Assembly (NCBI GenBank): GCA_000004985.1
Contig: GG738899.1
Reading direction: 5' to 3' (one strand)
Origin: Naegleria gruberi
Lineage: Eukaryota
Length of the DNA: 64,000 nucleotides
Part shown: piece after piece, positions 9,142 to 36,099 of the stretch
Numbering within the stretch: position 1 is the first letter of the stretch
Layout of the letters: each line of letters begins with the position of its first letter
Made by a program: the position numbers and the translations under genes
The notes under the pieces: model-generated
The model's input: the letters and a program-made list of their open reading frames with translations, nothing else
What the model was told of the DNA's origin: nothing
Database searches by the model: none

Positions 9142-12100
9142 ATGCTTCCATTTCCGCACAGGTTGTCTTATTTGTGTTTGTTATTTCTCTTCTTGGTACT
9201 CTTTACCCACCACAGCAACACAACAAACACTTTCTATCCTGTTGAATATTCTATGGAAGCAATTGTTGGCAACAGTCCAAATAGTACTTGGCATGCTTTG
9301 GATTACTTCTTCAAAGTAATACCTTCTTTCCGAGAGCCTGATAGATTCATCTACGTTCATGCAGCCAGAATGGGTGATGGTAAATTCAGTCTTCATAAAT
9401 TTGATAAATTAGAAGGAAATTATCAAAATATTGCTCCTGATGTGATGTATTTCACACTTGTTGCTCACATAACAGATGACAACTCTGTCCATGATGTGCT
9501 TTATTATGCTACCGATTCTACATGTACTTTTTACAAGTATAACGAAACAAACAACTCAACCACAAAAATTGCTGGTAATGGAGTTTGTGATACAAATTGC
9601 AATGCACGTGAAAAGCAATATAATGAGAGTCTTTGCAGGGGTTATTTAATGTCTTATCCACATAAATTCAATAATGAGAGTGAATTGTCCTTCTACTTAT
9701 ATGGTGGACAAGAAATTTATCGATTGAAGAATAATTTGGTACAGATTGTGGCAGGTCATGGAAAATCAACTTCCTTAGAAGATCAACCAGCAACAAATGT
9801 TACATTGGGTATATCTGGAACTTGTACCAACTCACTTGGAGAGATTTATATACTACAAAATTATCGAGAAGGAACAGGATATTATATTAGAAAGATTTAT
9901 CCAAATGGTATAATTACTACTGTCCTTTCGTTGATGGGAAATTATGCATATTCTGGTACTTGTTTGTTTGATAGTACTGTTTACGAGGTGGAAAATAAGA
10001 AAATGGTGTTGGATAGGTTATATATTTACGAACATCCAGCATCTACTGTAACAAAGTTTGAGCTTACTTTCGAATATCCAAACACTGGAAAGCCAACATT
10101 GCTTAATTATTCACAAACTACTCTAATTGGAAAATATAACTCTTTTGTACAAGCTGGAGATGGTGGCAAAGCAATCGATGGCAGAATTAGTACTGTAAAT
10201 GTCGACGCTTTTGATGGATTTGTTGCACTTTCTGCTCTGGGTAATGTTAGATTTATTGACAATCAAACTGGAATAATATCAGAGGTACTTTCGGCAAAAG
10301 GACATGGATTTTACACAGCAATTAATAATTTCAAATTCATACCAAAGGATATTATTTACTCTTACAATGAGGGAAATCCAGAAATTCACATAGCTGACCA
10401 TGTCTCATCTTCAATTTTGAAATATTCTTTGAAGAGCAAGAGTATGGAGCCAATGAAAAAGTATTTTATTAGCGATTTGAATAATGCCCCATCTACAGCA
10501 AAACCCTACTCTATGGCATTGGATTCCTATTCTAATTTACTTGTTTCTAATGATTTAAGCTATTGGAGCCCCAACTTTTTAGTTAATATAACCAAACTTG
10601 GACCAAAGGTGATATTTGGACAAAACAAAAAAATTGATGATTCTATTAGTTTGGATTCCTCAATATTGGGTAGGCCCTATTCCAGTTTTTTCATTATGTA
10701 CAATCAGGCGTACTATAGCATAGTTTCAGACAGAGGCAACAATAGACTCTTGCTTATTGACTTTGATGGAAGGAATATTACAACAATAGCTAGTATGAAA
10801 GATGGTATCAATGGACCAACTGGTATTTGCTATCTGAGCGATAGAAGTATGGTGATATTTTCAGATACTGGTAATCACGTCTTGAGATATTACAATATTA
10901 GGACACGTGAATTGGGAATATTTGCTGGAAGATTAGGAAAGAAAGGATTTACTGAAGGTTCTTTGCTCAACGCAACATTCAATCAAGTAAGTTTTAAAAT
11001 GAAACCAAACTAATTATACTAACTCAAAACACAGCCTGTTGGATTATCTTGCACTTTAGATAAAATTCTTGTGGCTGATTCTCATAATCATGCAATCAGA
11101 TTAATCAATATATATGCAAGCACTGTGGAAACTATTGCAGGAACTGGTAAGTGTTTTTGTTACAAAATTAAAGATCTTAATGCTCAATTCAGGAGAGGAA
11201 GGTTTTAATGGAGATTTCTTGGTACCTTTGAGTACTACATTCAATAATCCAATGGGAGTTTGCTTCCAAGAGCGTAATATTATAGTTGCTGACACGAATA
11301 ATCATAGAGTTAGAGTTATTGATGTAAACAACAGATATGTTTCCACAATCGCAGGATCTTTTTTGGATGGAGATAGTGGAGATGAAGGATTGGCCTCAAA
11401 AAGTTTACTCAATTCACCTCATGATGTTCAATATGAAGATAATGTAGTTTATATTGCTGGTATGTTTCAGGTATTTTTTGTTCAAGCTTCTAATCATTTC
11501 AGATTCTGGAAATAACAAAATTAGAGTAATTAAAGACCAAACTATTAGTTCCTTAATAGGGAGAAGTGGTAATTCTGGATTTGAGGGAGATGGAGGTCCT
11601 GGTTTAACAGCAAAGCTCAATTTCCCAACAGGATTGAGTCTTTCTACGAAATATATTGTAATTTCTGATTCAAAGAATAATAGACTTAGATTTTATTTAA
11701 AAGAAGAAAAAACTATTTATACATTAGCGGGTGGTTTTGGAGATAATGGGCCATCTGAGAATGGTATTGGAACACCGTTCGGAGTTACAATCTCTCCAAA
11801 CAATGAAATTTATGTCTCAGATGTGTTGAATAATTTAATTAGACGAATTAAGAATGGAAAAATTACAACAGTAGCAGGTTCTGGAGCATATGGATATAAT
11901 GGCGATGATATTAGTGCATTGAAAGCTTCTTTGGCATCACCTTCGAACATTGTTGTCAATCCTCTAACAAATGACATTATATTTTCAGATACAAACAATC
12001 ATAGAATTCGAATAATTTACAGTGACGGAAATATATCTACATTGGCTGGAACTGGACAAGCAGGTTATAATGGTGATGGAGTGGCTTCAGCTACTCACCT

Positions 12101-14057
12101 CCACTCACCTTCTTTTATCAAATTCATTCCACCACAATTCGAAGTGATAGTTTTTTCTGATTCTGCAAATGGAAGAATACGAAAGATTAGCAAGGTGAAT
12201 AATATTTATATGGTATCGACAATTGCAGGACCTCCTGACTTGATTGGAGTACCTGAGGGATTATCAATTTCAAACGAAGGAGATGTATATTTTGCAGATT
12301 CAAAGAATTTAAGAATTTCAAAACTAATTCCAACCTGTCAACCAGGATATGTACTCAATTTGGAAAAAACAAAGTGTATTCCTATTTGCTATGATATTTC
12401 GGCCCTTGATCCTTCCTCTTGCTCCAGTCATGGAAGTTGCATCGATAGAAACAATTGCCAATGCATGAATGGATATACTGGAAATTCCTGTCAATATTCA
12501 ATCTGTCATGGAATTTCTGGACAAAATATTAGTGTTTGCTCATATTCGGGAACTTGTGTATCTCCAAATAAGTGTGAATGTGTTTCAGGCTATGCTGGAG
12601 ATCAGTGTGAATTACCTACTTGTTTTGGAAAAACTGGAAGAGAGGGTTGTAATAATCGTGGAAAGTGCCATGCTAGAAATTTTTGCATTTGTGAAAATGG
12701 TTATGCAGGAACAACGTGTGAAACAAATGTAATATTGATTGGCTCTCTAGTTGCGGTCTTTGCTGTTGCATTGATTATTATTGGCATTGTGGTGTTAATT
12801 TTAATATTTGTCTTTTCCAAATATAGGAAACAGAAGAAGATTATTGATACCGATCTTACACTGGATGAGAGATTGTTATCACAAACTGAATTGGAAATTA
12901 GCAATACAAGTTCTAATCGTACATATCATCAAGAAGAAGACAAGTTTATCATTCCAATTGAACAATTGAATATGGATAAACCAATTAAAGTAAGTATAGC
13001 AAAGGAAATCAACATTAACAAATTTAACCTATTTTACACAGAGACTTGGAGAAGGAGGAATGGGAAGCGTATTCATGACCAAATATAATGGAATGAAGAT
13101 TGCTGTCAAAGTATTTGATTTGAACAATTTTAACATTTCCGAAGATGATTTCAAGATTGAAGCAATTTTATTAAGCAAGCTTAGACATCCAAACATTATC
13201 AACTTCTATGGCATATCGTCTACACCTACAAAGAGATTCATAGCAATGGAGGTAAGTTTCAATTATTTCCACGAGTGAAAACTGAACTATTTGAAATATA
13301 ATCACAGTGTATGGACAAGAGCTTGGAGTCCATGATTAGTTCACTGCAAAAAGGTACCTCTACATGTTCTCTTAAAATGAAACTATCCATTATTCTAAAT
13401 GTAGTGAGTGGTATCAATTATTTACATCATTTGGAGCCTAATTTTATTATTCATAGGTATGTTTTCACAAAGTGGCCTTTCACAATTTCTTATTGAATTA
13501 TATATAGAGATTTAAAACCAGCAAATATTCTCTTGGATAAAAATGGAATTGCAAAATTGTGTGACTTTGGATTGGGAAGGGCATTATCTTCCAATACAGT
13601 ATCAGCAATCACTAGTAAGGTTGGAACATATAATTATATGTCGCCAGAACTTTTCTCAGATGATATAGAAAGAGGAGATGCTCGATCAATTGATATTTAC
13701 AGTTTAGCCATCATTCTATGGCAACTCGTATTCGAAATTATGGAACCATATCAAAGCTCGGATACAAAAGTTCTTCAAAAATTGAATTTGGAAAAACCAA
13801 AAACCTTTAACAGCACTTATCATTTCCACAAAAGTATCTGTGAAGAGAAATTGAGACCAATTATTCCATTTTCCACATTGGAGGAATGTCGTGAGTGGTG
13901 TGAAAAATTCCTAGACCAAGAACAAGCCAAGTACTATGAGGTAATTTATGAGATGAGTCAATTGATTGAACAATCGTGGAGTCATGAGCCAAGTAAGAGA
14001 CCAACAAGTGTTCAGATTTTGGAAAAGATTGAGGAATGGGATGAACGAGTTTTGTAA
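9142..14057 (+). CDS. receptor-like protein kinase: signal peptide, N-terminal domain, NHL repeats, tenascin-type EGF repeats, TM helix, TKL-type kinase (7 exons)
   Basis: Exons are 9142-10986, 11035-11146, 11193-11459, 11503-12989, 13042-13251, 13308-13456 and 13508-14057. Introns are 42-56 nt, GTAAGT/GTATGT to AG. Splicing restores NHL motifs (DSHNHAIRLI, AGTGGEEGFNGD, VYIADSGNNKIRV). EGF repeats have the form CxxxGxCxxxNxCxCxxGYxGxxCxxxxC. The TM is LIGSLVAVFAVALIIIGIVVLILIFVF. The kinase shows the glycine loop LGEGGMGSVF, AVK, HRDLKPANILLD, DFG and YMSPE. Joins track ORFs 9142, 11114, 11454, 13060, 13311 and 13533. Confidence 0.75.
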
Positions 14058-14130
14058 AATTTAATTTTCAATTCAATTTCTGCATTGAGTTCAGGTTCAA
14101 AGTTTAATTTTCCAATTTCTAATAAAAAAA

Positions 14131-14472
14131 ATGAGTACCAGATCATCTGCGATTGATCGATTCACTATTAGCAATGGACCACAAAGGTGTGAAAATCAAA
14201 TTAATAGAATTTGTCCATTGTTTCTTCGGAATTTGTGTAGAAAAGGAGATGCATGCAATTTCCTTCATGAAATGCCATCAATTTCAGTGTGTCCTTTCTA
14301 TCAAGGTGGATTTTGCAAAGATGGACCAAAATGCAAATTAAAACACATCAAATCCGTGGCTTGTCCTGATTATTTATCTGGATTTTGCATCAATGGTCCA
14401 AATTGCAACTATTCACATCCTAAACTTGAATCTGATCAGATTTTCAACATGAAGTGCCAATCTGATCAATGA
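14131..14472 (+). CDS. CCCH-type zinc-finger protein (three C-x8-C-x5-C-x3-H fingers)
   Basis: 113-aa ORF with ATG after an aataaaaaaa context. Fingers are CPLFLRNLCRKGDACNFLH, CPFYQGGFCKDGPKCKLKH and CPDYLSGFCINGPNCNYSH. Resembles CPSF30/ZC3H-type RNA-binding fingers. Confidence 0.6.
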   Translation: MSTRSSAIDRFTISNGPQRCENQINRICPLFLRNLCRKGDACNFLHEMPSISVCPFYQGGFCKDGPKCKLKHIKSVACPDYLSGFCINGPNCNYSHPKLESDQIFNMKCQSDQ

Positions 14473-14921
14473 TTATCCATGAAATCCTACTCCGATTGTA
14501 TCAAGATTACAAAAAATTCATTCTTTCAAATTCCACTCCAATTCCTCTCTCTCAACATAATCCATCCTCTCATCCGACCGAAACAAATTTCAAAATACCC
14601 ACTGTTCCCGCCAAAATCATTGTAAACATGCACATGCACACCGAACTAACTCATGTCTTGCCTTAATTACTCCTAATTGTCCTGTTGAACGTGCGCTATT
14701 GCATTTTATAGCCTTTATATTGTTGCAGAGCATTTAGCCTTTGGCTCGAGAATCTTTTTGAAAACGACAATTTTTCAAAGCACTCGAAAAACGACGCTAA
14801 AAAACTCTCGAAAAAAAAATTGTCGTAATTGGTCGGTGATTGAACCACGCAAATTTCAAAGCCTAAAAGAAGATTTTTCACTACTGCAAGCCTTGACTAG
14901 ATTTAAACAGCTGTTTTAAAG

Positions 14922-16490
14922 ATGCAAGAAGCACATGAGGGAAATAACATTGAAGGAGTTTCGACTTCTGTAGAATTAGAAATTGTTGATAGTAATAATA
15001 ATAATAATGGAGAGCAACAACATGATGTAGAGGTGGTGGCGAGGAATGAAGAACAATCGACGCAGCATCAACAACAACAACAACAGTTTAATGTAATGAT
15101 AGAAGAAGAATCTCCTCAAGCTTCGAATAAGCCAATCACATATTACGAATCTTCACCAACAGCCATTGATAATAATTCTTCAATAACAACAACAACAACA
15201 AATAAGAAAAAGGTTAAATTACCTCCTCCAATGATAACCAAAAGCATTCAAACTAAGCAATGGCAAGTTGACTTCTCCAAGTTTCCCATAATCGAAACTG
15301 ACAAGGCAACTAAACTTAAAAAGCGAGTTTCCAAATTTTACGAAAAGCAAAACGAACTGGTTGAAGGTTTTGCTGATTTATATACGAATACCATTACGAA
15401 AGATTTTCTGGTAGACGGAGAAGACGGATATTTAGAATTGAACGACGAGCTTAAGGAAGAAAATCCAATTGACTCTTCAGCAAAGGACGATAGATATGCA
15501 AACTTTTGCATTCAAGCAAGTTTTTGGGTGAATATCTTGTTATTGTTTTTAAAGGTTTCAGCTAGTTTCTTATCAATTTCACTATCAGTTATTACTTCAA
15601 CTGTAGATTCGATTCTTGACATTGTTTCTGGGCTAATCCTTGTGTATACGAATCATTTGAGAAAAAAGAAGGGAGATTCTCACAAATATCCAGTTGGTAA
15701 GGATAGATTAGAACCACTGAGTTTCATTATTTTTGCAACATGCATGGCAACTGCAAGTCTTCAAATTATTAAGGAAGGTGTTGTGACAATTATTCAAGGA
15801 TTAGTGACAGGAGATCCATATTTACCTGCAAATAATGAAAACTTGATCAGTTGGAGTTCTCAACCAGAAACTCTTTCAGGTGAAATGGAATGGATGCTTG
15901 GAATCAAAGTTCCTGCCACCTTCAAGTTATTTGCCTATTCCTACAGTTTGGCTGTCATGTTGGTTGCTGTCGTTTTGAAAACCATCTTGTATTTCTTGTG
16001 TATTAGAGCTAAATCTGCTTCATGTGAAGCCTATGCCTTCGATCACAGAAATGATGTGCTCAGTAACTCATTCCTAGTTGCCTCCCTTTTCATTTCAATG
16101 TGGGCTTGGTGGGTTGATCCATTCAGTGCAACAGTTCTCTCCTGTTATATTATCTATGGATGGGTAGGTGAATCAATGGAACATGTGACCAAGCTTGTTG
16201 GTTTATCAGCTGAAAGTGATCTCATTCAGAAATTGACATTTATTGCTTACAACCATTGTGAAAAAATTGTTAAAGTTGATTTGGTCACTGCTTGGTATAG
16301 TGGAATGAATATTATTGCTGAAATTCATGTTGTCTTGCCACCTGACATGTCACTTAAGGAAGCACACAATATTGGAGCCAAGTTACAGACAAAGATTGAA
16401 TCTGTTCCAGAAGTGGAAAGATGTTTCGTCCATTTGGATTTCAACGACACTCACAAGAATGAAAGATCATTAATTGGAAAAGATGTATAA
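14922..16490 (+). CDS. cation diffusion facilitator (CDF) transporter, Mn-type (DxxxD motifs), with N-terminal polyQ/N tail
   Basis: 522-aa single exon. TM2 has STVDSILD (DxxxD) and TM5 has FDHRND (DxxxD), characteristic of the Mn-CDF/MTP8-11 group. About 6 TM helices and a C-terminal cytoplasmic domain. The N-terminal region contains (CAA)n-encoded QQQQQQ and NNNNN runs. Confidence 0.7.
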   Translation: MQEAHEGNNIEGVSTSVELEIVDSNNNNNGEQQHDVEVVARNEEQSTQHQQQQQQFNVMIEEESPQASNKPITYYESSPTAIDNNSSITTTTTNKKKVKLPPPMITKSIQTKQWQVDFSKFPIIETDKATKLKKRVSKFYEKQNELVEGFADLYTNTITKDFLVDGEDGYLELNDELKEENPIDSSAKDDRYANFCIQASFWVNILLLFLKVSASFLSISLSVITSTVDSILDIVSGLILVYTNHLRKKKGDSHKYPVGKDRLEPLSFIIFATCMATASLQIIKEGVVTIIQGLVTGDPYLPANNENLISWSSQPETLSGEMEWMLGIKVPATFKLFAYSYSLAVMLVAVVLKTILYFLCIRAKSASCEAYAFDHRNDVLSNSFLVASLFISMWAWWVDPFSATVLSCYIIYGWVGESMEHVTKLVGLSAESDLIQKLTFIAYNHCEKIVKVDLVTAWYSGMNIIAEIHVVLPPDMSLKEAHNIGAKLQTKIESVPEVERCFVHLDFNDTHKNERSLIGKDV

Positions 16491-16563
16491 CAATTTTATT
16501 ATTATAAATATTACAAAATACCATTTATTAATTTTTTCAAGATAGTTTCCTGTTCTCAACAAT

Positions 16564-19113
16564 TTACAAATTGAAATGTGGTGTGAACAAGCTCAACAAG
16601 AATGGAATCAAACATAAAATGACCAAAATCAATGGTGTGACTGATGCATTCATTAGAGAAGCACCAGAAGTGGCATTTCTATTCAAAGATCCAGTTGGAA
16701 TTGTTGAATTGTTACCATTATTGTCATTATTTCCAATGGTGGTTTGACATTGAGCTCCAGTATGTTTGGAATCACATGTGCAGGTGTCATTCTTGAGACA
16801 AGTACCAAATCCAGAGCAAACAGTGGCTGAAGTATTTGAAATTCCATAACAAACAACAACTGGTTGACTTGGTTGAGTAATGGTAGTTTCACATTTGGCT
16901 CCAGTATGCTTTGAATCACATGTACAAGTATTGTTTTTGACACAGGTGCCGAATCCAGAACAAACACTTGGTGAACTACTCAAAATTCCATAACAAACAA
17001 TCACTGGTTGAGCAATCACATTTTCACACTTTACACCAGTATGTTTGGAATCACATGTGCAGGTATCATTCTTGAGACAAGTTCCAAATCCAGAGCAAAC
17101 GCTTGGTGATGTGCTCAAAATTCCATAACAGACAATTGGAATGGTATTTTCACATTTAGAGCCTGTGTGAGATGAATCACAAGTACATGTATCATTCTTT
17201 AAACATTTACCAAATCCAGAACAGACAGCAGCTGAAGTATTTGAAATTCCATAACACATAATCACTGGTTGACTTGGTTGAGTGATGGTATTTTCACATT
17301 TGGCTCCAGAATGAGATGCATCACAAGTACATGTATCATTCTTTAAACATTTACCAAATCCAGAACAAACAGCAGCTGAAGTATTGGAAATTCCATAACA
17401 AACAACAACAACTGGTGGGTTATTATTGTTGCTATTCACATTAAAGGATGGAACAACCAATAAACTTGCACTTCTTGCATCCAATGAAACAGTTACCTTA
17501 CCATCAACTGAGCTAGTAGTCAGAGTTTGAGAATTCTTTGAAATAGTTCCAGGAGAAACAAATGTCCAAGTGGTGATGGATTTGCTCTTTCCAACGTCAC
17601 CTGCCAATTGTAAACTAACACTTGAAGCTGAAGTTAACTTGTTCACAAGGACAATGTACAATGTATTTGAGGCAGAGTTGACAAATGAGTAAGCTCCAAC
17701 ACTGTCAACATTTGAACTAGTGGTATTGACATAGGCTCCATTAATGCCAGCTCCCTTTCCGTCATAATTCATTAAAAATTGGAATGATTTCTCAACCATT
17801 GAACCACTTTTTGGAACTGTAAAACGAGTTGCCAAATCAACTCCTTCTCTACCAAAAATGGTTAAAATTTCAACTTGGGCCAAAGCAGAAGACCAAAGAT
17901 TGTCAGCTCCAAAATTATATTCAGTAATGGCCAACTTCAACTCTGGACAATACTTGGCAATGGATGCTTTCATACGTGGAATGAGTGCAACCCTTGAAAG
18001 TGGTCCATTAGATTCAGCATCAGTAATCCAACTTTCATCAACATAATTAAAATCATACAAGCTCTTGACAGTTCTCAAACGAAGATCTGAATTCGTATCT
18101 GCTGTTTGAGTGTCATCATAAATTCCACTTGCTTGTGGATAATAGTGAATATCCAAATAGTCAACCAACAAAATTCCAGTATTCTTCTTATATTCACAAA
18201 CCTTTGTCAAGTAATAATCAATGAGTGGTAAATTGGAATGAGCTTGACGATCAGCACCAGAGGAACAACCATCTGCAGGGGAATAATAATATCCGCAATG
18301 TCCCCATGAATTTGGACCAAATGTCTTGATTGTGGAATCTTCTGTCTTGATTGCTTTGGCATATTTCTCAGTTAAGGTCCACATTTCATCGTAGGTTATT
18401 GGATTTGGATGGACATCATGATGGGTGGAATGCCACAAGTCCATTTCATTATCCAATGACCACAATTTGACAGGTGTTCCTCTACTTTTCATGTATTTGA
18501 TCCAGTTGACTACATAATTTTCATCAATGACTTTTGAAGTTTCTGCTGGATCATTTCCAGTAACATAGATATTACCAGTCTTTTTACCATTACCAGCATC
18601 TCCCATACACCAACTAGGAAAACCAGTTCTAGTACATTCAGTTTCCAATTGACTACCATATTTAGCAACTGAAAAACCCCACTTTTTAGAACGATCATCC
18701 AATGGAGTATAACCAATCAAACTAGCAGTCAGCATCAACTTGGATCCATGCTTATTAGCTGTGTCCATAAACATTGTAGCTGCAGATCCATTCGGCAAAA
18801 TTTGTCCGCTCTCAATTTCGTCTGGAATATTCATGAAAAACCAATCCTGAGCCGTGTTATGAATATTCTGTTGCCAATTATAACGAGTATCTGAATTACC
18901 ACCTTTACGATTGATTGTATATTTAACAGATTGAAAATTGGCTTCTTGTGCGTAGTTGACTCCAAAAATGTCTTGGTTGAGTTGGTTGCCGATTGGGAGG
19001 GAAGAATCAATTTTAACGGTGAGTTGTTGGTGGGTGGGGAAGAGGAGGAAGCAGATGATTGTCAGAAATAACAATCGACATGATGGTGTCAAGAGTTTGT
19101 TGACTAGTGACAT
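16564..19113 (-). CDS. GPI-anchored clan GH-A glycoside hydrolase (GH44-like) with six tenascin-type EGF repeats
   Basis: The start is re-set to ATG at 19111-19113 (MSLVNKLL...signal peptide). The track ORF 16564-19227 begins 38 codons upstream with no Met. The catalytic region has RKGGNSDTRYNW. It has a LDNEMDLW acid/base NE motif and an AITEYNF nucleophile TE motif, as in clan GH-A (beta/alpha)8 retaining glycosidases. Six repeats of the form VCYGISNTSAAVCSGFGKCLKNDTCTCDxxHxGxKCE follow. The Ser-rich C-terminus ends in a hydrophobic tail (NATSGASLMNASVTPLILVILCLIPFLLSLF), consistent with a GPI signal. Confidence 0.65.
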   Translation of the reverse strand: MSLVNKLLTPSCRLLFLTIICFLLFPTHQQLTVKIDSSLPIGNQLNQDIFGVNYAQEANFQSVKYTINRKGGNSDTRYNWQQNIHNTAQDWFFMNIPDEIESGQILPNGSAATMFMDTANKHGSKLMLTASLIGYTPLDDRSKKWGFSVAKYGSQLETECTRTGFPSWCMGDAGNGKKTGNIYVTGNDPAETSKVIDENYVVNWIKYMKSRGTPVKLWSLDNEMDLWHSTHHDVHPNPITYDEMWTLTEKYAKAIKTEDSTIKTFGPNSWGHCGYYYSPADGCSSGADRQAHSNLPLIDYYLTKVCEYKKNTGILLVDYLDIHYYPQASGIYDDTQTADTNSDLRLRTVKSLYDFNYVDESWITDAESNGPLSRVALIPRMKASIAKYCPELKLAITEYNFGADNLWSSALAQVEILTIFGREGVDLATRFTVPKSGSMVEKSFQFLMNYDGKGAGINGAYVNTTSSNVDSVGAYSFVNSASNTLYIVLVNKLTSASSVSLQLAGDVGKSKSITTWTFVSPGTISKNSQTLTTSSVDGKVTVSLDARSASLLVVPSFNVNSNNNNPPVVVVCYGISNTSAAVCSGFGKCLKNDTCTCDASHSGAKCENTITQPSQPVIMCYGISNTSAAVCSGFGKCLKNDTCTCDSSHTGSKCENTIPIVCYGILSTSPSVCSGFGTCLKNDTCTCDSKHTGVKCENVIAQPVIVCYGILSSSPSVCSGFGTCVKNNTCTCDSKHTGAKCETTITQPSQPVVVCYGISNTSATVCSGFGTCLKNDTCTCDSKHTGAQCQTTIGNNDNNGNNSTIPTGSLNRNATSGASLMNASVTPLILVILCLIPFLLSLFTPHFNL
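16720..17380 (-). repeat. tandem coding repeats of about 110-120 bp (EGF modules) with near-identical DNA copies
   Basis: Units such as ccagtatgtttggaatcacatgtgcaggtgtcattcttgagacaagtaccaaatccagagcaaac recur near 16770 and 17040 with 2-3 mismatches. A second unit type (gtacatgtatcattctttaaacatttaccaaatccagaacagacagcagctgaagtat...) recurs near 17190 and 17320. Read directly from the sequence. Confidence 0.7.
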
Positions 19114-19876
19114 TTTTTTTGAGTGATGGGTTTGTTGGGTGCTTTTCAAATTTGTTTGAATATTTTTATGTTGCGATGAGGCTACTGATTTGGTAATTGA
19201 TTGTTGTGGAAGGTTTTTGAAAATCAACTGTTTCGAATAATTATGTTGTAAAGGTTCACCAATTCAATAATTAAAATTCGATTAGGTAAAAACCTTCATT
19301 CTTGCCAACCACCTTAATAGCAACTTGAAGCAATATCCAATGATTCAAGTGGTAGTCACAAATCAATTAACAAAACATTCAAATATACCAACAATTTAAA
19401 ATACAAGTGTCAAATCCTTTGGATGTGAACAAGCCAGAAGCTTCAGCTGTGGCAATAACTTGTCCAGAACTATATTCTACATGATGACCTCTCCCCAATC
19501 ATTGTGCCCTTAAAACGAGGAATTGCCTATTTAGAGAATGGAAATGAAAATACCCTTTAATAAAACGGATTGGGGACCAGTGGGAATCGAACCCACGGCC
19601 TCTCGCACCCAAAGCGAGAATCATACCACTAGACCATGGTCCCTTACACATGGTTTTTCAAAAACACTTTCAGTAGGCAAGCCTTATTATCATTTGCCTT
19701 AATTCAAAGGACGTCTCTTCTTTCAGTCTTGACAAATTGCTCATATTTTGATTGACTGCTACAACAGCCACAAATGGTAATACTACGGCAAGTGTTTCAA
19801 CCTCAAAAAAAAATGTGCGTTCCTACTAGACATATGAAATAAGTAAAAAAATCCAACAATAACTCGAGCAAAGATA
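19114..19876. promoter_or_regulatory. divergent intergenic region between the GH gene (minus) and the UGT gene (plus), containing tRNA-Pro
   Basis: 763 bp between the divergent ATGs at 19113 and 19877. A-rich stretches sit immediately 5' of both ATGs. The tRNA gene with its internal Pol III A/B boxes is embedded here. Confidence 0.3.
19572..19643 (-). tRNA. tRNA-Pro (anticodon UGG)
   Basis: The minus-strand reading is GGGACCA TG GTCT AGTGGTA TGATT CTCGC TTTGGGT GCGAG AGGCC GTGGG TTCGATT CCCAC TGGTCCC C. This gives a 7-bp acceptor, a D-arm, an anticodon stem with loop TTTGGGT (UGG), and a T-arm GTGGG/CCCAC with loop TTCGATT. Discriminator is C. A T-run lies downstream on the minus strand. Confidence 0.9.
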
Positions 19877-21810: not shown

Positions 21811-23175
21811 TCAATAAATTAAAATCCAAACATTTCCATCTATACCTATTTCACATTTGAATTTAATAGACGTCAATTGTCTCTTATCCTTGTTGAATAC
21901 CTTGAATACAACTCCTTCAGATCCACATTCCAATACTGAAATGAAATCATACTCCTCCTTTAGATCTTTGTAATAAAAATTGAGAATTTCAACTGACTTT
22001 GCAAACTCTCCATGTAATTCGTTATATTTGCCGAGTATTTCTTTGTAATTATCGAAAGTTTTCTCATCTTCCAGCCATTTTGTGGCGAACAGCATCAACT
22101 GTTGGATTTCCTTTTCGGTATAAAATGATGTATCAAACTTTTCTGAAATATATTCCACAACGTACTTCAATTCTTTCACATTAGTTGAAACAGCAGGATT
22201 ATCTTCCATAAATTTATCCAATCTAAAACAAAATAAGTAATAATCAATACTGTCTTCTTGACTAACCTCAATGTTAGATTCTGAATTATTAACTCTCATT
22301 AATATTTGAAATATAATCAACTTTTCCACAAAGCTGGGTGAGTAGTTGCGGTTGAACTTGAACAGAGTCTTCTTTAGTTTTGGATTCATATTTGGCAATT
22401 CGATACAATAAAATAGTTCAGTTTCATCACTGAAATTTTGATATAACTCAATAATATTCCGTGATAATTTGGTTTGGAGATTGTAATGTTCAATAATTTG
22501 TGTTAGATCAGGTGAATATTCTCTTGCTTTTGGTAAATTTTGTTTTGATAATAAATAAATAAATTTGACATTTGACTTCAATGATTCGCTGGCATATATC
22601 AGAGAAAATGCATTTTTCTTAACAGATTCCAATACAATTTCTTCATCTTTTTTAAATATTTCATTGGTATAGTACAGAACTAATCCATTTTTCTTGACAG
22701 CTTCCAAAATAAATTCTCTATCTTTTCGTAACGATTCATTTGCAAAATTGAGTGAAAATTCATTCAATTCAATAGCTTCCAACAAAAACCCTCTATCCCT
22801 TCTCAATGTTGAATTGGCATAATTCAAAGAAAAGCTATACTTTCCAACAGCAGCCAACAATATCTCTCTATCTATCCTAAACGATTCGTCTACAATTTCA
22901 ATTACTGATCCGTCCTGTTGAACAGCTTCCAATGCCAATTCTCTATCCTTCTCCAAGTCAATGGCATATACCAGTGCAAATCCGTTTTTCCTAACTGCCA
23001 ACAATATAAATTCACGATCCTTCCGAAGTGAAATGTTTGCTTTCAAGAGACAAGAACAATCATTGCCAAAGGAGGGAATTTGTTGTAAAACGAATTGTTC
23101 ATTGGACTGGTAAAAGTTGGATTTATGAAAGTTAGTGATCAGAAAATGTTAAATACTAACCCATTGATTTTGCAT
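21811..23175 (-). CDS. DUF4116 repeat protein, 2 exons
   Basis: The track ORF starts at TTG. An upstream acceptor (ttttaccAG) at 23107-23109 joins a 15-nt first exon, 23161-23175 (ATGCAAAATCAATGG, MQNQW), through a 54-nt GTTAGT..CAG intron. The main exon, 21811-23106, carries 8 or more repeats of about 25 aa (KDREFILEAVKKNGLVLYYTNEIFKKD...), the DUF4116 pattern. Stop at 21811-21813. Confidence 0.55.
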
Positions 23176-23880: not shown

Positions 23881-24411
23881 GTAGTAGTGATTTCTGGTTG
23901 ATATTCCTCTCTCTGTTTATTTACACCACCAGTTCTTGGATGATTACCGAATATTCGTTTTGTGTTCTTTGAAAAATCAGAGTGTACGCTGCTGAAAACT
24001 TTTGTATTTTTTTTGAGGTGCGCACTGGAGTAGAATGGAAACGAGGCTACAAATGGCATGCTCGGGTTGACTTTTGTGGACTGGTATGAAATATTGTAGT
24101 GGCCACCACTTTACAACTCATTTGCATAATACTGTAATAGTACTTAATGAGCTTGAGGTACTTTTATGAAACCTTTTGCTTGTTGGGAGTAGATACAATC
24201 CACGAATGTAAGAGTAGAGAATATTTGGAAAGCAAAAAATTTGAAGTTTTACAATAGTTTACAATTTGTGAATTTACAAAAATTGGAAAGACGTTCCAAA
24301 CATCTTTCAAATCTCAAGTGATCGTTGGAGTGCAAAGGTATCAGTGATGCTGCAGGGTATTATTATTTTACAAGAGTCAAAAATGTTACTTTGGATCAAA
24401 GAAATATCAAA

Positions 24412-27747: not shown

Positions 27748-27928
27748 TCACCTTCCCTAAATAACTATAATAAACCCTGAATAATTGTTTTGTAATGTAG
27801 ATCTGCATTTTCGCTCTTCCAAACCGAATACTACCACTTGCCAAGTATGGCAACACAATCTATTCATTTTCAAAAAAGTTACACCTTCTAAATACATAAA
27901 TGTAAAGGATATGGTTTTAATTTGGTAT

Positions 27929-29839: not shown

Positions 29840-29984
29840 TTTTTTAAATTCTAATTTTAAATAATTTTAAGGAAAAATATTCTTTTTTTCATATTTATTT
29901 GAATTGAAATAATATCAACATGAAATTTACATTAAGAAAAACTATTTTTAAGACAAAATTGATTGAAAATTTGAGCATGTTAAC

Positions 29985-30692
29985 TTAAAGTGATTTGGAA
30001 GGTGTTGGTGCACGGGTCAATCTTAAATACCATTCAACAAATAAACATGAAGTCACCCAACCAGCAATGAATTCGAAAGCAAAGAGTTTGTGAGCTGTGG
30101 CAGTAACTAACCAAGCATCTGGAGCACAGAGGACATTCTTTGCAATGGTGACCAAAATTCTCATGTAGAAGACTCCAAAACAAAGAGCCCACATTCTACA
30201 AGCCCATTCTCTATGAGCTGCAAAGTCCTTTCTTCTAGCACTTTCGAATGATTTGTAAATACACACCAAGGTATAAGGTGCAAACACAAATGTTGCCAAT
30301 TGACACAAAATACCCATCTTGGAGGTCAAAACCAGCAAGATTGAAGAGATGACCGAAACAACAGCACTCACAAATGTAATCTGACCTAACAATTTGTGAA
30401 CTTTTCCACCAACCATCTTTCTCATCACACCCAACAATTGGAAAGGAGACAAAACAAAGACCACTCCTCCACAAACCACATGTCCCAAAAACAATGCATA
30501 CTTGACCAATCCACTCTCATGATAGGCCTTAAACCACTTATCATAAAATCCCTCTCCCAAACTCTCTGTTGTGCTGGCTCTATGATAGCTATCACTGTAC
30601 ATCATCAGACAATGAATGCCGAAATAGAGAGAGGCCAATGTCATTAAACTCCACAAGGAATAAGAAGCAACCGAAGATAAAAAAGCTTTCAT
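29985..30692 (-). CDS. uncharacterised multi-pass membrane protein (about 6 TM helices)
   Basis: 235-aa ORF with ATG at 30690-30692 on the minus strand. Several hydrophobic helices (LWSLMTLASLYFGIHCLMMY; VVCGGVVFVLSPFQLLGV; VVSVISSILLVLTS; LATFVFAPYTLVCIY; MWALCFGVFYMRILV). No confident family. Confidence 0.45.
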   Translation of the reverse strand: MKAFLSSVASYSLWSLMTLASLYFGIHCLMMYSDSYHRASTTESLGEGFYDKWFKAYHESGLVKYALFLGHVVCGGVVFVLSPFQLLGVMRKMVGGKVHKLLGQITFVSAVVSVISSILLVLTSKMGILCQLATFVFAPYTLVCIYKSFESARRKDFAAHREWACRMWALCFGVFYMRILVTIAKNVLCAPDAWLVTATAHKLFAFEFIAGWVTSCLFVEWYLRLTRAPTPSKSL

Positions 30693-31212
30693 TTCTGGTT
30701 ATTTGCTTGGATTATAGCAGTGTAGTTGTTTTTTTTGAATGTTACAAATGCAATGAGAATGTTGGTGCAAGGTTAGGTGGTGATTTAGTTGGTTTTCACA
30801 CAGAGTGCCAAAAGGTAAGTAGTTGTTGGTCGATTCGAAGATGATCCAACAACTCCTTAATTTCCCCGTTTGGAGCATATTAATAAGATCAATGAGATTA
30901 CAATAAAAATTGTCCGCATCGTTGACTAATATCTTGTGTTGTGAAAAATAATGATGGTTGTGAAAATAATTGACTCGATTTCAAAGAACACATAGGATTC
31001 ATTCGTTGATGATGCACTTTTTGTTAAGGCAAGTCAACAAGAGTTCCTAAGAGGATGATGTTTCTCAATGCCGTGAACAAACCTTTGTTATTGAGTATCA
31101 ATTATTATAAATTGAGATGGTAACCAAGTCGAAACCAATTTCCTTTTAGGTAATTTAAAAACAACTTTTGGTCATTGCCTATCAAACAATCCAATTAGAA
31201 AAAAAATCATTG

Positions 31213-34200
31213 ATGATGATTAGAACGATGACTCTAAATTTCCTTTGCATTGCTTTACCACTAGTTGCATTGCTTTTCATCAGCTCCCAGTGGATTGTCT
31301 TTTCGAAACCTGTCGAATATCAAATAGAAACACTATCAGCCACTTCCCAACCATTGTCTTTTTCCTTCACACTTGGTCGGCAATCTTCATCACAAAACGA
31401 ATTAATTTACTTTCTTTCTTTTTACCAATTATTCGAATTCAACCAAAATGGTGGAAAATTGTCACAATTAATTGGTTGTGATTCCTCTTCATCTGGCAGT
31501 AAATTGTCATGTGAAAGCTTTTCGCATTTCAAGAATGGTGCTAAATTCTCATCTGCCAATCGAACCAATATTTTGTTTTCCAGTTTTCATGTGGACGAAA
31601 GTGATGAAAATCAAATTTATCTTTCCAGTTTTTATCAAATTTATTTATTTAATAAGAGGGAAGGTATTATTACACTACTTTCCGATAAGGATTTTGATAA
31701 AAAAACGAATGCACGAGATGGAATGTTTCTAAACGAAACTGTATTTACTGAAATACGGTCAATTACGAAAGATTTTATTGGAAATATGTTTATTTGTGAT
31801 GATGAAGTAATTTACAAAGTTGGTTTAGATGGAATTTTACGAGAATTGACCTCTCGTGAGGGAACTTCACTTAAAAAACAAAACGGCTATTCGAATCAGA
31901 CTATTCTCCTGAACCCAACTTTTATTTCACATCATAAGGGTTATATATATGGATATGACATATTTTCCATCTTTAAAATCAATATAGAAACAGGTTGGTT
32001 GACTGTTATTTCAGGAAAAGTATTTGGTTCATCATCTGGCACTGATGGACCTGCGTTGGATACCGTAATTTCGCCGAAAGGTCTTTCGTTTCTTCCAGAC
32101 GATTCGATTCTGACATTGGATCATGAATATTTCAAGATTATTAATCAGACAGATGGAATGTTGAGAACACTATTTAAATTAGAAAGTTTCAAGCCAAGTA
32201 CAAGTTCTTTCGTTTTTGGGAATTATTTGATTGGAAATGAAAACAAAATTCTAAAGATTGATTGGTTGGCTGGAAGAGTTTCATTAATTTTGAAAGGAGG
32301 AATAGGTGCTTTTGGAGATGGAGTTAATTTAAAGAATAGATATTTCAAATCAATTTCTGCAATTGCATTTAATGAGTCGAGTGGTGAATTATTTGTTGCC
32401 GATTCATCATCTGAAAATACTTTGGAAAAAATTAACATTTCAAATGGAACGTTGCAAAGCATTTCTCTAACATTTTCGAATGTTTCATGTTGGAATTCAT
32501 CAATAGAGACGAGGAGTGTTATTTCATATAATCCAGTTTCATTGCAAATCAAGGATTCGAATTTGTTTTTGGCAAATACTGGAAGCCAAAGTTCAATTCA
32601 AAAATTTGATCTAGCTCAGAAAGGTGGATCGAGTTGTTTTTATGCAGGTTCAATCAGTAGTGATAGATTATTATCTAGATCTGGACCTCTTTCAGTGATA
32701 ATGAATAATCCAAATGGAATTCATTGTTCACAAGTTTATGATGAAATTTATATTGCAGGTTTGTTTCGCATATTTTGGAAAATCAAATAACTTTCAATAA
32801 TAGATACTGATAATCATCGAATTTTGAAAAGTAGAAGAGGAACAGTGGAAGTTATTGCTGGAAATGGTATTCAAGGTTATTCAGGTAAGTTGCCATTTCT
32901 AATAATTTTATAAATTATAATAAATTTTAAGGTGATGGAGGTTTGGCTATTAATGCTCAGTTAGATAGACCTCATTCAGTTTATTATGAAGGTAGCACAA
33001 GAACTCTGTACATAGCAGACTCTGGTAATCATCGAGTGAGATCTGTACAAATGGATACTGGAATAATTTCAACAATTCTTGGAACTGGAAATTCTGGTTT
33101 CAATGGAGATGATATGAATCCGTTAGAAATTCAACTAAATTTCCCAAAATACGTTGTCCACTCACCAGGATGGGGTCTATTCATTTCAGATAGCAATAAC
33201 CACAGAGTGAGATGGTTAAACAATTCGGTTGTGACTACCATTTTAGGAAGTGGAAATTCTGGTTCAAAAATTGTGACTAACAATCCGACTCTGACTGAGC
33301 TTACTTCACCATTTGGATTATTTTTTGAAGCCTTGGCAAGTACTCTCTACGTTGCAGGTATGTTTCATATGAATTAATTTCAGTGTTTGACAAATTCGTC
33401 TAGATTCGTTCAATCACAGAATTTTATCTGTCTCCCTATTCGATGCAAGATCTGTTTCCATAATAGCAGGAACTAATTCACCTGGTTACAATGGAGATGG
33501 TATGAATCCAACACAAGCCAAGTTATTTCTTCCTAGTTCTGTTTTCATGTTATCTAAATATGAAATTTACATTGCTGATTCGTATAATAATAGAATTAGA
33601 AAGATTAGTAATGGAATTATTTCAACATATGCAATGGCTTCTCAAAAGACAGATCTCAATATACCAATTGGAATGTGTGGATATGGAAATGACCTCTTTA
33701 TTTCAACCGAGAATGAAATAATAGAATTAGTTGGAAGTTATATTTATAAGAAAGTGGGAGGATTAGGAGATGGATTGAACGTCTTCTATGCTCACGTCAA
33801 TCCAACAAAGATTCTCTTCTATCCAGACAATAGAATGTTAATTTCAGAATCAAGTACGAATAGAATTCGATTGGTGAATGAAAATGGAACGATTTCAACA
33901 ATTGCTGGAACTGGTAAATTTGGATATGGAGGAGATACAAGTGAGGCCAATGTTGCCATACTTGCTTCACCGACTGGTCTGTCATTTAGCCCTAATCATT
34001 CCACAGTTTACTTTGCCGATTCCTCCAATAATCGTATCAGAAAATTGGTTTCGGATTTGGTTTTCCTTGTTGCTGGCACAGGGGATGCTGGAAAATCCTC
34101 ATCAACCGATCCTTTTCAATCCAAATTCAATAATCCTAGACTAATTGCCACTCTCACCAATGGAGACGTTGTAATTGGAGATACTCTGTCCAATGAAATT

Positions 34201-36099
34201 CGAATTATTTCCAATAAGGAAGGAACAATTCGAACAATTGCTGATATCACAGCAGCCACCGACATGATTTCCACACAAAACAATACTCTCTACATCTCCA
34301 CCAATGAACAGATCATCAAGGCAACTCCACGCTGTGAAACAGGATTCCAATTAGTGAAACAAAACACTGAATGTGTTCCAATTTGTTATGGAATGTTTGA
34401 GAGTGGAATGGTTTGTTCAAGTCGTGGTGAATGCACTTCTCCAGATAATTGCAAATGTTGGAATGGATTATACACGGGAAAGGAATGTGAAATTCCAATT
34501 TGTTTTGGGATCTCTGCAAATGATCCTAATGTATGCTCGTATGGAAATGGAACTTGCATGATCAATAACAAGTGTCAATGTTTGGATGGATTTTATGGAG
34601 AAACTTGTCAATTTCCAATTTGTTTTTCTAAAATAATTGGAGAATCATGTGGTGGACCAAGCAGAGGAGCTTGCACCAATAAGGATGTTTGTAAATGTGG
34701 TCAATTTTACACTGGCGAACAATGCCAATACCGAATGTGTCAAGGAAAGAGTGAAATAGACAAATCTGTATGTAGTGGACATGGAAAATGCCAAGCTAAT
34801 GGAAGATGTGAATGTGACACTCTTTATATTGGAGATGATTGTTCCAATATGTCACAAATTTATGGATTGAGCATTGCTTCTGCACTCATTATTGTTATCC
34901 TCACTACAATGTTGGTAGTTTCTCTCATTTTGGGAGTAATCGTCTATAGGAAGAATAGGCGAGAGAAGAAAATAATCGAAACTGAACTCTCACTTGATGA
35001 AAGATTATTATCCTCAACTGATATATATGAAATGTCTCTATCTCACGGTTCATTAGCATCGCATGCTACTGTATCAACTGAAGATGCTTCTTCCTTCGTG
35101 ATTCCACTTCACAAGATTGGAATGGATAAACCAATTAAGGTTAGTTTCAAATTAATTATTCTATTAACAATTGAATCTTGATAAATTAATTTAACACAGA
35201 GACTTGGAGAAGGTGGAATGGGAAGTGTTTTTATGACCAAATTTAATGGAATGACAGTTGCTGTCAAGGTCTTTGATTTGAATAACTTGAATATTTCAGA
35301 GGAGGATTTCAAGAATGAAGCAATAGTATTAAGCAAACTTCGTCATCCAAATATTATTAACTTTTATGGAATTTCTACATCACCAACTAAACGATACATT
35401 ATCATGGAATGTTTGGATCAGAGCTTGGAGAAGGTAATTGCCAAATTGGAAATGAAACAATTATCTTTCACACTCGAACAAAAATTGAGAATGTTGCTGA
35501 ATATTGCTAATGGAATTGAATATTTGCATTTTTTGAAACCGAGGAGGATTATTCATCGCGATTTGAAAACAGCTAATATTCTACTAGACTCGAATGGAAA
35601 CTGCAAGGTTTGTGACTTTGGGTTGAGTAAATCCATTTCACAAGCAACTGTTTCCGCACTTACTAATCAATTGGGTACACATTTTTATATGGCTCCAGAA
35701 TTATTCGATATCAAACCGATTGATCCGACCTATGCCACATCAGTTGATATCTACAGTTTTTCTATTATCATGTGGCAATTACTATTCGAAATTAAGGATC
35801 CCTATCTCAGTAAATCTCCAGAAATATTGAGAAAGCTTGGAACTACCTCAATTCTTGAACAAGTAACTTCCTACCAATTGACCAAAATGATTTGTGAGAA
35901 CAACCACAGACCAAGCATTCCTTTCAATTCCATTGAATCATGCCATGAATGGTGTTTCGAATACATGCCTTCCTCCCAAGACGAATCTCCTCAAATCTTT
36001 GCACTTTCCCAATTAATCCAAGAATGTTGGCAAACTGATCCAAAACTCCGACCAAACATTGAACAAGTTATCCAACACCTTCAATCCCTACTCACCTAA
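31213..36099 (+). CDS. receptor-like protein kinase, paralog of 9142-14057: signal peptide, N-terminal domain, NHL repeats, EGF repeats, TM, TKL kinase (5 exons)
   Basis: Start at ATG 31213 (MMIRTMTLNFLCIALPLVALLFISS). Exons are 31213-32758, 32804-32884, 32932-33357, 33404-35139 and 35200-36099. Introns are 45-60 nt, GTTTGT/GTAAGT/GTATGT/GTTAGT to AG. Splicing restores NHL motifs (YIADTDNHRI, GYSGGDGGLA, YVADSFNHRI, IYIADSYNNRIR). There are 5-6 EGF repeats and the TM IASALIIVILTTMLVVSLILGVIVY. Kinase motifs are LGEGGMGSVF, AVK, HRDLKTANILLD, DFG and YMAPE. Joins track ORFs 31168, 32943, 33502 and 35218. Confidence 0.75.

Follow-up and report, generated by a model that had tools for sequence, protein, structure and literature searches.

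The textbook examples of receptor kinases come from animals and plants; how diverse these proteins are in other eukaryotic supergroups is poorly charted. Naegleria gruberi, the host of the genes described here, is a heterolobosean amoeboflagellate and not an amoebozoan. Transmembrane (TM) kinases of Entamoeba (TMKs), of other amoebae and of oomycetes, as well as the plant RLK/Pelle kinases (CERK1 and SOBIR1 among them), are type I proteins in which a single TM helix separates a variable ectodomain from a TKL-like RD kinase. Their ectodomains carry LRR, LysM, lectin or CXXC repeats. It has been reported that protist receptor kinase families grow by ectodomain swaps on a conserved kinase (PMC10463195); Naegleria, NHL and EGF are absent from the text of that survey.

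Propellers occur in several other systems. Teneurins and bacterial teneurin-like proteins combine a six-bladed NHL propeller with teneurin-type EGF repeats, which lie between the propeller and the membrane. Teneurins lack a kinase, have type II topology and form a superfold of FN-plug, YD shell, ABD and Tox-GHH (PMC13018210). ROS1/Sevenless have YWTD propellers interspersed with FNIII domains and a true tyrosine kinase (HRDLAARN). In the LDL-receptor family (LRP4/5/6, LDLR), YWTD blades alternate one-to-one with EGF, and there is no kinase. The bacterial kinase PknD of Mycobacterium tuberculosis has its kinase at the N-terminus, inside the cell, and a single C-terminal propeller outside, without EGF.

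In this study, we analyzed a window of N. gruberi DNA, by which we mean the whole stretch of 64,000 nucleotides. It holds two paralogous genes, gene 1 (g1) and gene 2 (g2). Like the protist and plant receptor kinases, both encode predicted type I proteins that cross the membrane once and carry a TKL-like RD kinase, but their ectodomain consists of NHL propellers and EGF repeats. The NHL and EGF modules and their order relative to the membrane are shared with teneurins; however, teneurins are type II, whereas g1 and g2 are type I (signal-like N-terminus, TM helix at aa ~1151-1199, C-terminal kinase). Teneurins carry eight teneurin-type EGF repeats next to the membrane; three EGF repeats are present in g1 and four in g2. 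A Pfam scan of g1 and g2 at E<=0.01 gave no match to any RHS/YD, TTR, FN-plug or Tox-GHH model. Membership in the teneurins was rejected because the superfold is absent and the membrane topology is opposite. The label teneurin-like, used in an earlier sequence-only reading of this DNA, is thus apt for the domain families (TEN_NHL, EGF_Teneurin and the nearest solved NHL structure) and not for superfold or topology. Unlike ROS1/Sevenless, g1 and g2 have NHL blades followed by clustered EGF repeats, and the Pfam scan gave no fn3 and no Ldl_recept_b match; the propeller fold class is the sole common feature. NHL blades also set them apart from the LDL-receptor family. The order of PknD is the reverse of theirs. 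It recurs in metagenomic kinase-then-NHL fusions (L007-L010, L016, L017), one of which (L010) has no TM helix at all. A literature search found no description of a family combining NHL, EGF, TM and TKL kinase, as the sequence-only reading had supposed.

Gene models and domain architecture

Both genes lie on the + strand, 17.2 kb apart, at the positions given by the sequence-only reading (about 17 kb). They have canonical GT..AG introns of 43-60 nt, and the spliced frames are uninterrupted. The features, in window coordinates, are as follows.

9142..14057, + strand: gene 1, 1539 aa; spliced model, clean frame, GT..AG introns of 43-56 nt
9142-10986, 11035-11146, 11193-11459, 11503-12989, 13042-13251, 13308-13456, 13508-14057, + strand: gene 1 exons
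9142..9210, + strand: gene 1 putative signal peptide, aa 1-23, MLPFPHRLSYLCLLFLFLVLFTH; core LCLLFLFLVLF, Kyte-Doolittle 3.45
9211..10659, + strand: gene 1 divergent N-terminal region, aa 24-506; sub-threshold Pfam TEN_NHL, E 0.0016
10660..12359, + strand: gene 1 canonical NHL blades, aa 507-1027, about 10; introns 1-3 inside; Pfam NHL 4.5e-29
12336..12719, + strand: gene 1 two-Cys lead-in and 3 six-Cys EGF repeats, aa 1020-1147; cysteine-pattern scan, Pfam EGF_2 and EGF_TEN
12729..12815, + strand: gene 1 TM helix, aa 1151-1179; hydropathy peak 3.59
12816..12989, + strand: gene 1 juxtamembrane block, aa 1180-1237, KKIIDTDLTLDERLLS...MDKPIK; kept in g2, L001 and L002, partly in P0031
13042..14057, + strand: gene 1 predicted TKL kinase domain, aa 1238-1539; introns 5 and 6 inside; Pfam Pkinase 1.7e-46
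31213..36099, + strand: gene 2, 1562 aa; spliced model
31213-32758, 32804-32884, 32932-33357, 33404-35139, 35200-36099, + strand: gene 2 exons
31213..31290, + strand: gene 2 putative signal peptide, aa 1-26; core IALPLVALLFI, hydropathy 3.02
31291..32655, + strand: gene 2 divergent N-terminal region, aa 27-481; predicted ~8 degenerate four-stranded propeller blades
32656..34320, + strand: gene 2 canonical NHL blades, aa 482-990, about 9-10; introns 1-3 inside; Pfam NHL 1.2e-24 and blade HMM
34333..34842, + strand: gene 2 two-Cys lead-in and 4 six-Cys EGF repeats, aa 995-1164; cysteine-pattern scan, Pfam EGF_Teneurin
34858..34947, + strand: gene 2 TM helix, aa 1170-1199; hydropathy peak 3.05
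34948..35139, + strand: gene 2 juxtamembrane block, aa 1200-1263, KKIIETELSLDERLLS...MDKPIK; 75% identity to the environmental orthologue L001
35140..35199, + strand: gene 2 intron 4, phase 0, between juxtamembrane and kinase exons; equivalent in gene 1, 12990-13041
35200..36099, + strand: gene 2 predicted TKL kinase domain, aa 1264-1562; K1286, D1384, D1402; Pfam Pkinase 9e-49

The exon junctions of gene 1 restore the NHL blade periodicity and also yield a gap-free kinase alignment with gene 2, which is intronless in the kinase. The two proteins are 38% identical (g1 556-1532, g2 497-1558). NHL and Pkinase were both detected by Pfam with the E-values listed, along with TEN_NHL (1.7e-8 in g1, 2.6e-18 in g2) and EGF_2 (about 1e-9). 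These matches, the hydropathy profiles and the sequence identity agree with the paralogous architecture that had been proposed: an NHL and EGF ectodomain, one strong TM helix, a juxtamembrane block and a putative TKL-type kinase. At the level of gene models and comparison, signal peptide, ectodomain, single TM helix and cytoplasmic kinase of a type I receptor-like kinase are found in one polypeptide. The signal peptides are putative, being called from sequence hydropathy alone; the orthologue of gene 2 (P0296) has a signal-like segment at its N-terminus too.

Ectodomain

Repeated four-stranded blades of ~45-55 aa matching the NHL profile (PF01436) were observed in both proteins. An HMM built from the family's own blades gave 10 matches of 14-73 bits in the NHL stretch of g1 (iteration 0 only; later iterations were circular). 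The best matches of the NHL array are bacterial proteins (28-38% identity), and the nearest solved structure to the NHL region of g2 is the NHL domain of a teneurin-like protein from Bacillus inaquosorum (9IFO/9PT5, 2e-38).

The N-terminal halves of the two paralogs had been described as unrelated. No significant homology was detected when a profile of the g2 and P0296 N-termini was aligned with the g1 N-terminus in hhalign; however, the N-terminal ~480 aa show marginal collinear similarity (local z 2.8, global z 4.3), and in g2 they are predicted to form more blades (moderate confidence, pLDDT 54). The blade HMM had zero matches in this region of g1, and a single-sequence AF2 model of the g1 N-terminal exon reached a pLDDT of 32. 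By analogy, we infer that the g1 region may fold like the g2 blades. Judging from the models, the divergent region most likely represents more degenerate NHL-type blades and not another kind of domain. It is the fastest-evolving part of the protein: identity to the orthologue is 39% in this membrane-distal region, 51-57% in the NHL array, 63% in the EGF repeats, 75% in the juxtamembrane block, and 80% in the kinase. The difference between the N-terminal halves makes it plausible that the paralogs bind different ligands.

A cysteine-pattern scan revealed three (g1) and four (g2) six-Cys EGF repeats plus a two-Cys lead-in, fewer than the five to six repeats first counted. The score against EGF_Teneurin (PF23106, cut-off 24.3) is above the cut-off in g2 (34.1) and just under it in g1 (23.3); EGF_TEN (PF25024) is under its cut-off in both. 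An EGF module of the same type also occurs within the window in a GH44 glycosidase and an EGF-array protein, which makes it a generic Naegleria extracellular module. Each protein has 14-15 N-x-S/T sequons.

Juxtamembrane block and kinase

The juxtamembrane and kinase strings quoted in the sequence-only reading occur verbatim in g1 and g2. All kinase motifs are present in g1 (GxGxxG, VAVK, HRDLKPAN, DFG, SPE, RP), and a complete catalytic core, including the αC-Glu, was observed in g1, g2, L001, L002, P0030, and P0031 (GxGxxG, VAVK, HRDLKxxN, DFG, (S/A)PE, RP). Pseudokinase status was rejected, as every catalytic residue is intact; the counterpart of K1286 of g2 is K1260 in g1. The best PDB match to the kinase is CTR1 (5.5e-32), followed by DLK, ZAK, CERK1, TAK1, and BRAF, all of them TKL kinases; Eph tyrosine kinases rank below these among solved matches. 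The catalytic loop, HRDLK(P/T)AN, is Ser/Thr/TKL-like. On the closest PDB matches and the catalytic loop, the kinase probably belongs to the TKL group. The kinase has no clear placement in the RLK/Pelle clade: RLK/Pelle proteins match it at 30-39% identity, but CTR1 and MLK-type MAP3Ks score higher among solved structures.

Family members and variation

The gene pair in the window is not unique. At least three further N. gruberi members (P0029, P0030, P0220) are present in public databases as 'predicted protein'. In a more distant relative, the TM/juxtamembrane/kinase chassis is the same but the ectodomain is unrelated, which supports modular ligand-sensing domains on a common kinase. Comparison of g2 with a wild-strain allele (L085) revealed 20 synonymous and 11 nonsynonymous changes and an in-frame indel. 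The whole frame and all GT/AG sites are kept, intron 4 is identical, and there are no nonsynonymous changes in the kinase. Gene 2 is demonstrably under purifying selection.

Bacterial NHL proteins dominated a search of full-length g2 against an index of 5.8 billion proteins, in which no match shared the architecture. An exhaustive HMMER search with g2 exon 4 returned mostly giant EGF or NHL repeat proteins, with a kinase in one of 150 (P0220). A scan of JGI metagenomes with the family kinase alignment found distant kinases only (<=37% identity).

Proposed function and alternatives

We consider it probable that g1 and g2 belong to a small family of the Naegleria lineage and are type I receptor protein kinases with a single membrane pass, acting as follows. 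The signal peptide would send an ectodomain of ~1150 aa to the cell surface or an organelle lumen. The ectodomain would be a long array of roughly 17-18 NHL-type blades; blade counts and one model (pLDDT 54) suggest that these most likely form three tandem six-bladed propellers, the membrane-distal ones strongly diverged. Below them, three to four disulfide-bonded EGF repeats would provide a short rigid stalk, and one TM helix and the conserved juxtamembrane block (…LDERLL…MDKPIK) would link the ectodomain to the kinase. With its catalytic residues intact, the kinase is predicted to be an RD-type, TKL-group Ser/Thr kinase, possibly of dual specificity. A putative ligand, possibly a carbohydrate, a protein or a surface molecule of bacterial prey, would bind the variable distal propeller(s) and alter receptor oligomerisation. 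The kinases would then trans-phosphorylate their Ser/Thr-rich activation segment and pass the signal to targets in the cytoplasm. With the same intracellular chassis, different paralogs may read different ligands.

A gene-model artefact, in which one gene for the NHL-EGF-TM protein and a neighbouring one for the kinase have been joined, might be suspected from the deposited paralogs P0029 (270 aa) and P0030 (303 aa), which hold the kinase only. Both look truncated, however, since P0029 has no Gly-loop and begins with an internal Met, and P0030 begins with the Met of MDKPIK in the juxtamembrane exon, from which it is spliced across the intron before the kinase exon. Five comparative observations, all at the level of sequence, support a single gene. 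The gap between the two parts is a GT..AG intron of 52-60 nt, which lies in phase 0 exactly between MDKPIK and RLGEGG in g1, g2, and L001, so that no start codon precedes the Gly-loop within the kinase exon. This intron is absent from L002/P0028, where juxtamembrane block and kinase share one continuous ORF and exon (L002 has an apparent 1-nt frameshift between TM and juxtamembrane block, which could be an assembly error or mark a pseudogene). TM, juxtamembrane block, and kinase are contained in a single ORF in P0031; EGF, TM, and kinase are joined in the deposited model D2V423 (P0220); and L004 and L001 together reconstruct a full-length orthologue. On the strength of the conserved intron, the continuous frame of L002 and the joined models, we rejected the split-gene reading as extremely improbable.

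The proteins could also be receptor kinases of an internal compartment, with NHL and EGF facing the phagosome or endosome lumen, where they would report which bacteria have been ingested or how far a vesicle has matured; VSK3, a vesicle-surface kinase of Dictyostelium, would be comparable. Topology and domains would be the same as in a surface receptor, Naegleria is a phagotroph, and nothing in the sequence separates a plasma-membrane from an endomembrane destination. We nevertheless regard an internal location as distinctly unlikely: no sorting motif was identified in g1 or g2, a long glycosylated ectodomain on an EGF stalk is characteristic of proteins at the cell surface, and the EGF module is also found on the apparently secreted or surface GH44 enzyme. 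A primary role in adhesion or recognition (cell-cell, cell-substrate, mating), with teneurin-like homophilic or matrix binding and a secondary, modulatory kinase, would fit the teneurin-type Pfam matches and the nearest solved NHL structure, and a link between the NHL sensor of PknD and laminin adhesion has been reported (PMC3322341). The kinase is conserved more strongly than any other part of the protein, though, and has kept all of its catalytic residues, which argues that catalysis is central and not accessory; YD shell and FN-plug are lacking as well. Adhesion as the main function is therefore very unlikely in our judgment.

Going beyond the receptor-kinase reading that we prefer, the family may be an independent invention of multi-propeller receptor kinases in the Naegleria lineage, convergent with ROS1/Sevenless and LRP-type proteins and assembled from bacterial-type NHL arrays (possibly by lateral transfer), a generic EGF stalk and a TKL kinase. 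Its fast-evolving distal propeller would recognise bacterial prey, or self/non-self or mating type. We hold this scenario to be unlikely; if true, it would amount to a pattern-recognition receptor-kinase family in a heterolobosean.

Significance

The two genes represent a real and apparently undescribed version of a receptor kinase. Among the deposited N. gruberi models of the family, several are cut to the kinase, so kinome and receptor surveys that rely on them miss the family; the paralog entries D2VBV8, D2V8X1 and D2V423 are short of a complete ectodomain. The relative with the same chassis and an unrelated ectodomain indicates that evolution by swapping the ectodomain and keeping the kinase is seen in Discoba. 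Tandem NHL propellers on an EGF stalk joined to a TKL kinase in a heterolobosean would add one more independently assembled receptor kinase of the propeller type, and the family members are candidates for environmental sensing by a free-living bacterivorous amoeboflagellate.

Gene models and genomic setting

The two genes that the sequence-only reading had described as paralogous receptor-like TKL kinases with NHL-propeller and EGF ectodomains are genuine, as judged from spliced frames, Pfam matches, a TM helix and kinase motifs. GC content of the region is about 35%, and its ORFs are broken up by short frame-breaking gaps. The introns of both genes are canonical (GT..AG, 43-60 nt), and their removal yields two uninterrupted frames:

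Gene 1, 9142-14057, + strand, 1539 aa: exons 9142-10986, 11035-11146, 11193-11459, 11503-12989, 13042-13251, 13308-13456, 13508-14057
Gene 2, 31213-36099, + strand, 1562 aa: exons 31213-32758, 32804-32884, 32932-33357, 33404-35139, 35200-36099

NHL blade periodicity was recovered across the splice junctions of both models, and the kinase of gene 1, once spliced, aligned gap-free to that of gene 2, which is intronless there. The exact models have no entry in the protein collection searched. On either side of gene 1, the ORFs match EFC39449.1/D2VUH3 and EFC39451.1/D2VUH5 of N. gruberi NEG-M exactly, and the taxon was corrected to N. gruberi. The upstream neighbor (6960-9110, same strand), a RING/B-box/MATH (TRAF-like) gene corresponding to EFC39449.1, ends only 31 nt before the ATG of gene 1 (window 9110-9142), which leaves scarcely any space for a 3'UTR, a promoter and a 5'UTR. 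Other features detected in the window were:

16567-19227, - strand: GH44 glycoside hydrolase (Pfam 7e-69) fused to five teneurin-type EGF repeats, the same modules as in the two kinases, and a C-terminal hydrophobic tail
19572-19643, - strand: tRNA-Pro(TGG), on which Rfam and ARAGORN agree
21814-23046, - strand: DUF4116-repeat protein (Pfam 1.3e-46)
38180-38258, - strand: tRNA by Rfam (44 bits, 79 nt) with no ARAGORN call, which may be intron-containing or atypical
38362-41422, - strand: receptor-type adenylate/guanylate cyclase, another sensory membrane enzyme adjoining the kinases, with a large N-terminal region, TM helix, cyclase domain (split across ORFs 39056-41422 and 38362-39111) and then a TPR repeat
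62706-64000, + strand: long teneurin-type EGF/DUF7949 repeat array (EGF_Teneurin 1e-46), part of another large extracellular protein that continues past the window end

Introns 11460-11502, 32759-32803 and 33358-33403 occupy an identical position in different NHL blades ('…YIA|D…', phase 1, Asp codon) and open with similar sequence (GTATGTTTCA / GTTTGTTTCG). The same blade position is interrupted in the environmental contig L004 (~3873-3910, and by a second intron further downstream). In the environmental orthologue of gene 2, this position carries an intron in a blade that is uninterrupted in gene 2, and introns 1 and 2 of gene 2 are missing. The shared position and the differing intron sets suggest that blades were duplicated with their intron, followed by differential intron loss, or that a protosplice site acquired introns more than once.

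Domain architecture

NHL repeats and a kinase were found by Pfam in both proteins: Pkinase (gene 1, 1.7e-46; gene 2, 9e-49), PK_Tyr_Ser-Thr (3e-36; 6e-45), NHL (4.5e-29; 1.2e-24), TEN_NHL (1.7e-8; 2.6e-18) and EGF_2 (~1e-9 in both). EGF_Teneurin passed its cut-off for gene 2 alone; EGF_TEN scored below its own for both proteins. Each protein has a hydrophobic signal-like segment at the N-terminus and one strong TM helix (gene 1, 1151-1179; gene 2, 1170-1199). With a blade HMM trained on the clear-cut NHL repeats, about 10 canonical blades were recognized per protein (507-1027 and 483-964, respectively). The five to six EGF repeats counted earlier were reduced by the cysteine pattern to three six-Cys repeats in gene 1 and four in gene 2, each set after a two-Cys lead-in. 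From gene 1 residue 556 and gene 2 residue 497 to the C-terminus the proteins are 38% identical.

The N-terminal regions (~480 aa) had been considered unrelated. Direct BLAST gave no match between them, and a profile of gene 2 and its environmental counterpart P0296 (from L004) found nothing significant in gene 1; shuffle-calibrated alignment gave only marginal collinear similarity (local z 2.8, global z 4.3; observed score reached in 1/300 shuffles), and both mature proteins start with PVEYx[MI]E. Pfam matches to TEN_NHL/NHL in these regions were all sub-threshold, and the unbiased blade HMM placed a single blade, at 362-418 of gene 2, with no hit in gene 1. Most parsimoniously, the entire pre-EGF ectodomain would consist of ~17-18 NHL-type blades, an interpretation that has moderate support in gene 2 and that we only infer for gene 1; the blades would probably form three six-bladed propellers, the distal ones highly diverged.

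Both kinases and four relatives have the GxGxxG, VAVK, αC Glu, HRDLK(P/T)AN, DFG and (S/A)PE motifs and the subdomain XI Arg. The nearest solved kinases all belong to the TKL group (CTR1, 5.5e-32; DLK/MAP3K12; ZAK/MLT; CERK1; TAK1; BRAF), with Eph tyrosine kinases and Roco4 just behind, and the best non-Naegleria matches in a large protein index were plant RLK/Pelle kinases (30-39% identity). On the basis of these motifs and closest matches, we would call the kinase RD-type and place it no further than the TKL group. The C-lobe carries a family-specific insertion of ~40 aa between subdomains IX and XI (window 35200-36099 and 13508-14057). The insertion, shared by all close relatives, has a Cys pair within its conserved motif RPxIPF…(E/S)CxEWC.

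Linkage of ectodomain and kinase

Comparative evidence, consistent across six observations, would join the ectodomain to the kinase in one protein. The pre-kinase intron of gene 1, gene 2 and environmental contig L001, in phase 0, falls precisely at the …MDKPIK/RLGEGG junction, so that the kinase exon opens at the Gly-loop without a start codon of its own. In environmental contig L002 (protein P0028) the juxtamembrane block and kinase are continuous in a single exon, and NHL blades, four EGF repeats and a TM helix lie upstream on the same contig. A single ORF of environmental contig L003 (P0031) comprises TM helix, juxtamembrane block and kinase. In D2V423 (P0220, 1064 aa), a model deposited for N. 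gruberi, ~19 EGF repeats are joined to TM helix and kinase. Contigs L004 (encoding P0296) and L001, from one metagenome, abut and together give a full-length gene 2 orthologue, with everything between the signal peptide and the kinase included. Gene 2 of a wild strain (allele L085) shows 20 synonymous and 11 nonsynonymous substitutions (rough dN/dS of 0.17), none of the latter in the kinase, and one in-frame 3-nt indel; it retains 4/4 GT/AG pairs, and intron 2 divergence (10/47) is far above that of the exons.

L002, otherwise an intact family member, has an apparent 1-nt frameshift between TM helix and juxtamembrane block (~1340-1375), which could be an assembly error or mark a pseudogene.

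Two deposited paralog models are kinase-only: D2VBV8 (P0029) is without the Gly-loop, and D2V8X1 (P0030) opens with the MDKPIK Met and has the same pre-kinase intron spliced out. From their sequences both look like truncations. D2V423 begins within the last NHL-like blade, without a signal peptide. Together these models indicate that the family is under-annotated in the reference proteome.

Divergence and distribution

Identity between gene 2 and its environmental orthologue increased towards the C-terminus: 39% in the N-terminal region, 51-57% in NHL, 63% in EGF, 75% in the juxtamembrane block and 80% in the kinase; the corresponding values for gene 1 versus gene 2 were 25, 35, 47, 48, and 54%. 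In the more distant relative L003, an unrelated GGAI-repeat ectodomain precedes the shared chassis of TM helix, …EKRLL… and kinase. Given this swap, and the teneurin-type EGF module on the GH44 glycosidase and the EGF-array ORF, the family appears to have arisen by domain shuffling among the extracellular modules that are standard in Naegleria. The L003 ectodomain, rich in GGAI/GGAL-type repeats, has a beta-helix look; one stop codon separates ORFs 2-964 and 974-2356.

In the protein index and environmental contigs searched, close kinase relatives were confined to N. gruberi (genes 1 and 2, P0029 and P0030, with P0220 more distant) and a few environmental contigs of Naegleria-like composition. 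A JGI metagenome scan found no relative nearer than 37% identity; some distant loci couple a kinase and NHL repeats in reverse order, kinase then NHL. Such fusions occur on the unrelated contigs L010 (1133-2725), L007-L009, L016 and L017. In L010, from an AT-rich organism, the kinase passes straight into NHL blades without a TM helix; its predicted product is a cytosolic kinase-NHL protein.

Comparison with known receptors

Teneurins have type II topology, a superfold of FN-plug, NHL and YD-shell, and a Tox-GHH domain (PMC13018210). Membership of gene 1 and gene 2 in this group was rejected: their topology is type I, and Pfam did not find FN-plug, YD-shell or Tox-GHH. What stands of the teneurin-like description is the NHL and EGF domain families only, and their arrangement, with EGF repeats membrane-proximal and NHL distal in both. 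The nearest solved NHL sequence is the bacterial teneurin-like protein of B. inaquosorum (2e-38), with animal teneurin-2 far behind (~1e-4). ROS1/Sevenless have multi-propeller ectodomains, but the blades are of YWTD type, FNIII domains are included and the kinase is a tyrosine kinase. By function, plant and protist receptor kinases with a single TM pass come closest. In PknD, a bacterial kinase with an NHL sensor (PMC3322341), the kinase/NHL order is reversed. A survey of protist transmembrane kinases (PMC10463195) does not mention Naegleria, NHL or EGF. Our literature search, with the Naegleria genome paper beyond its reach, returned no paper pairing 'Naegleria gruberi' with 'NHL repeat' and no description of NHL/EGF receptor kinases of Naegleria.

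The two kinases cannot be called teneurin relatives in a strong sense; they belong to a small, under-annotated Naegleria family, for which we infer ligand specificity and signaling. Receptor Ser/Thr kinases as such were already known, and the new part is the ectodomain variant.
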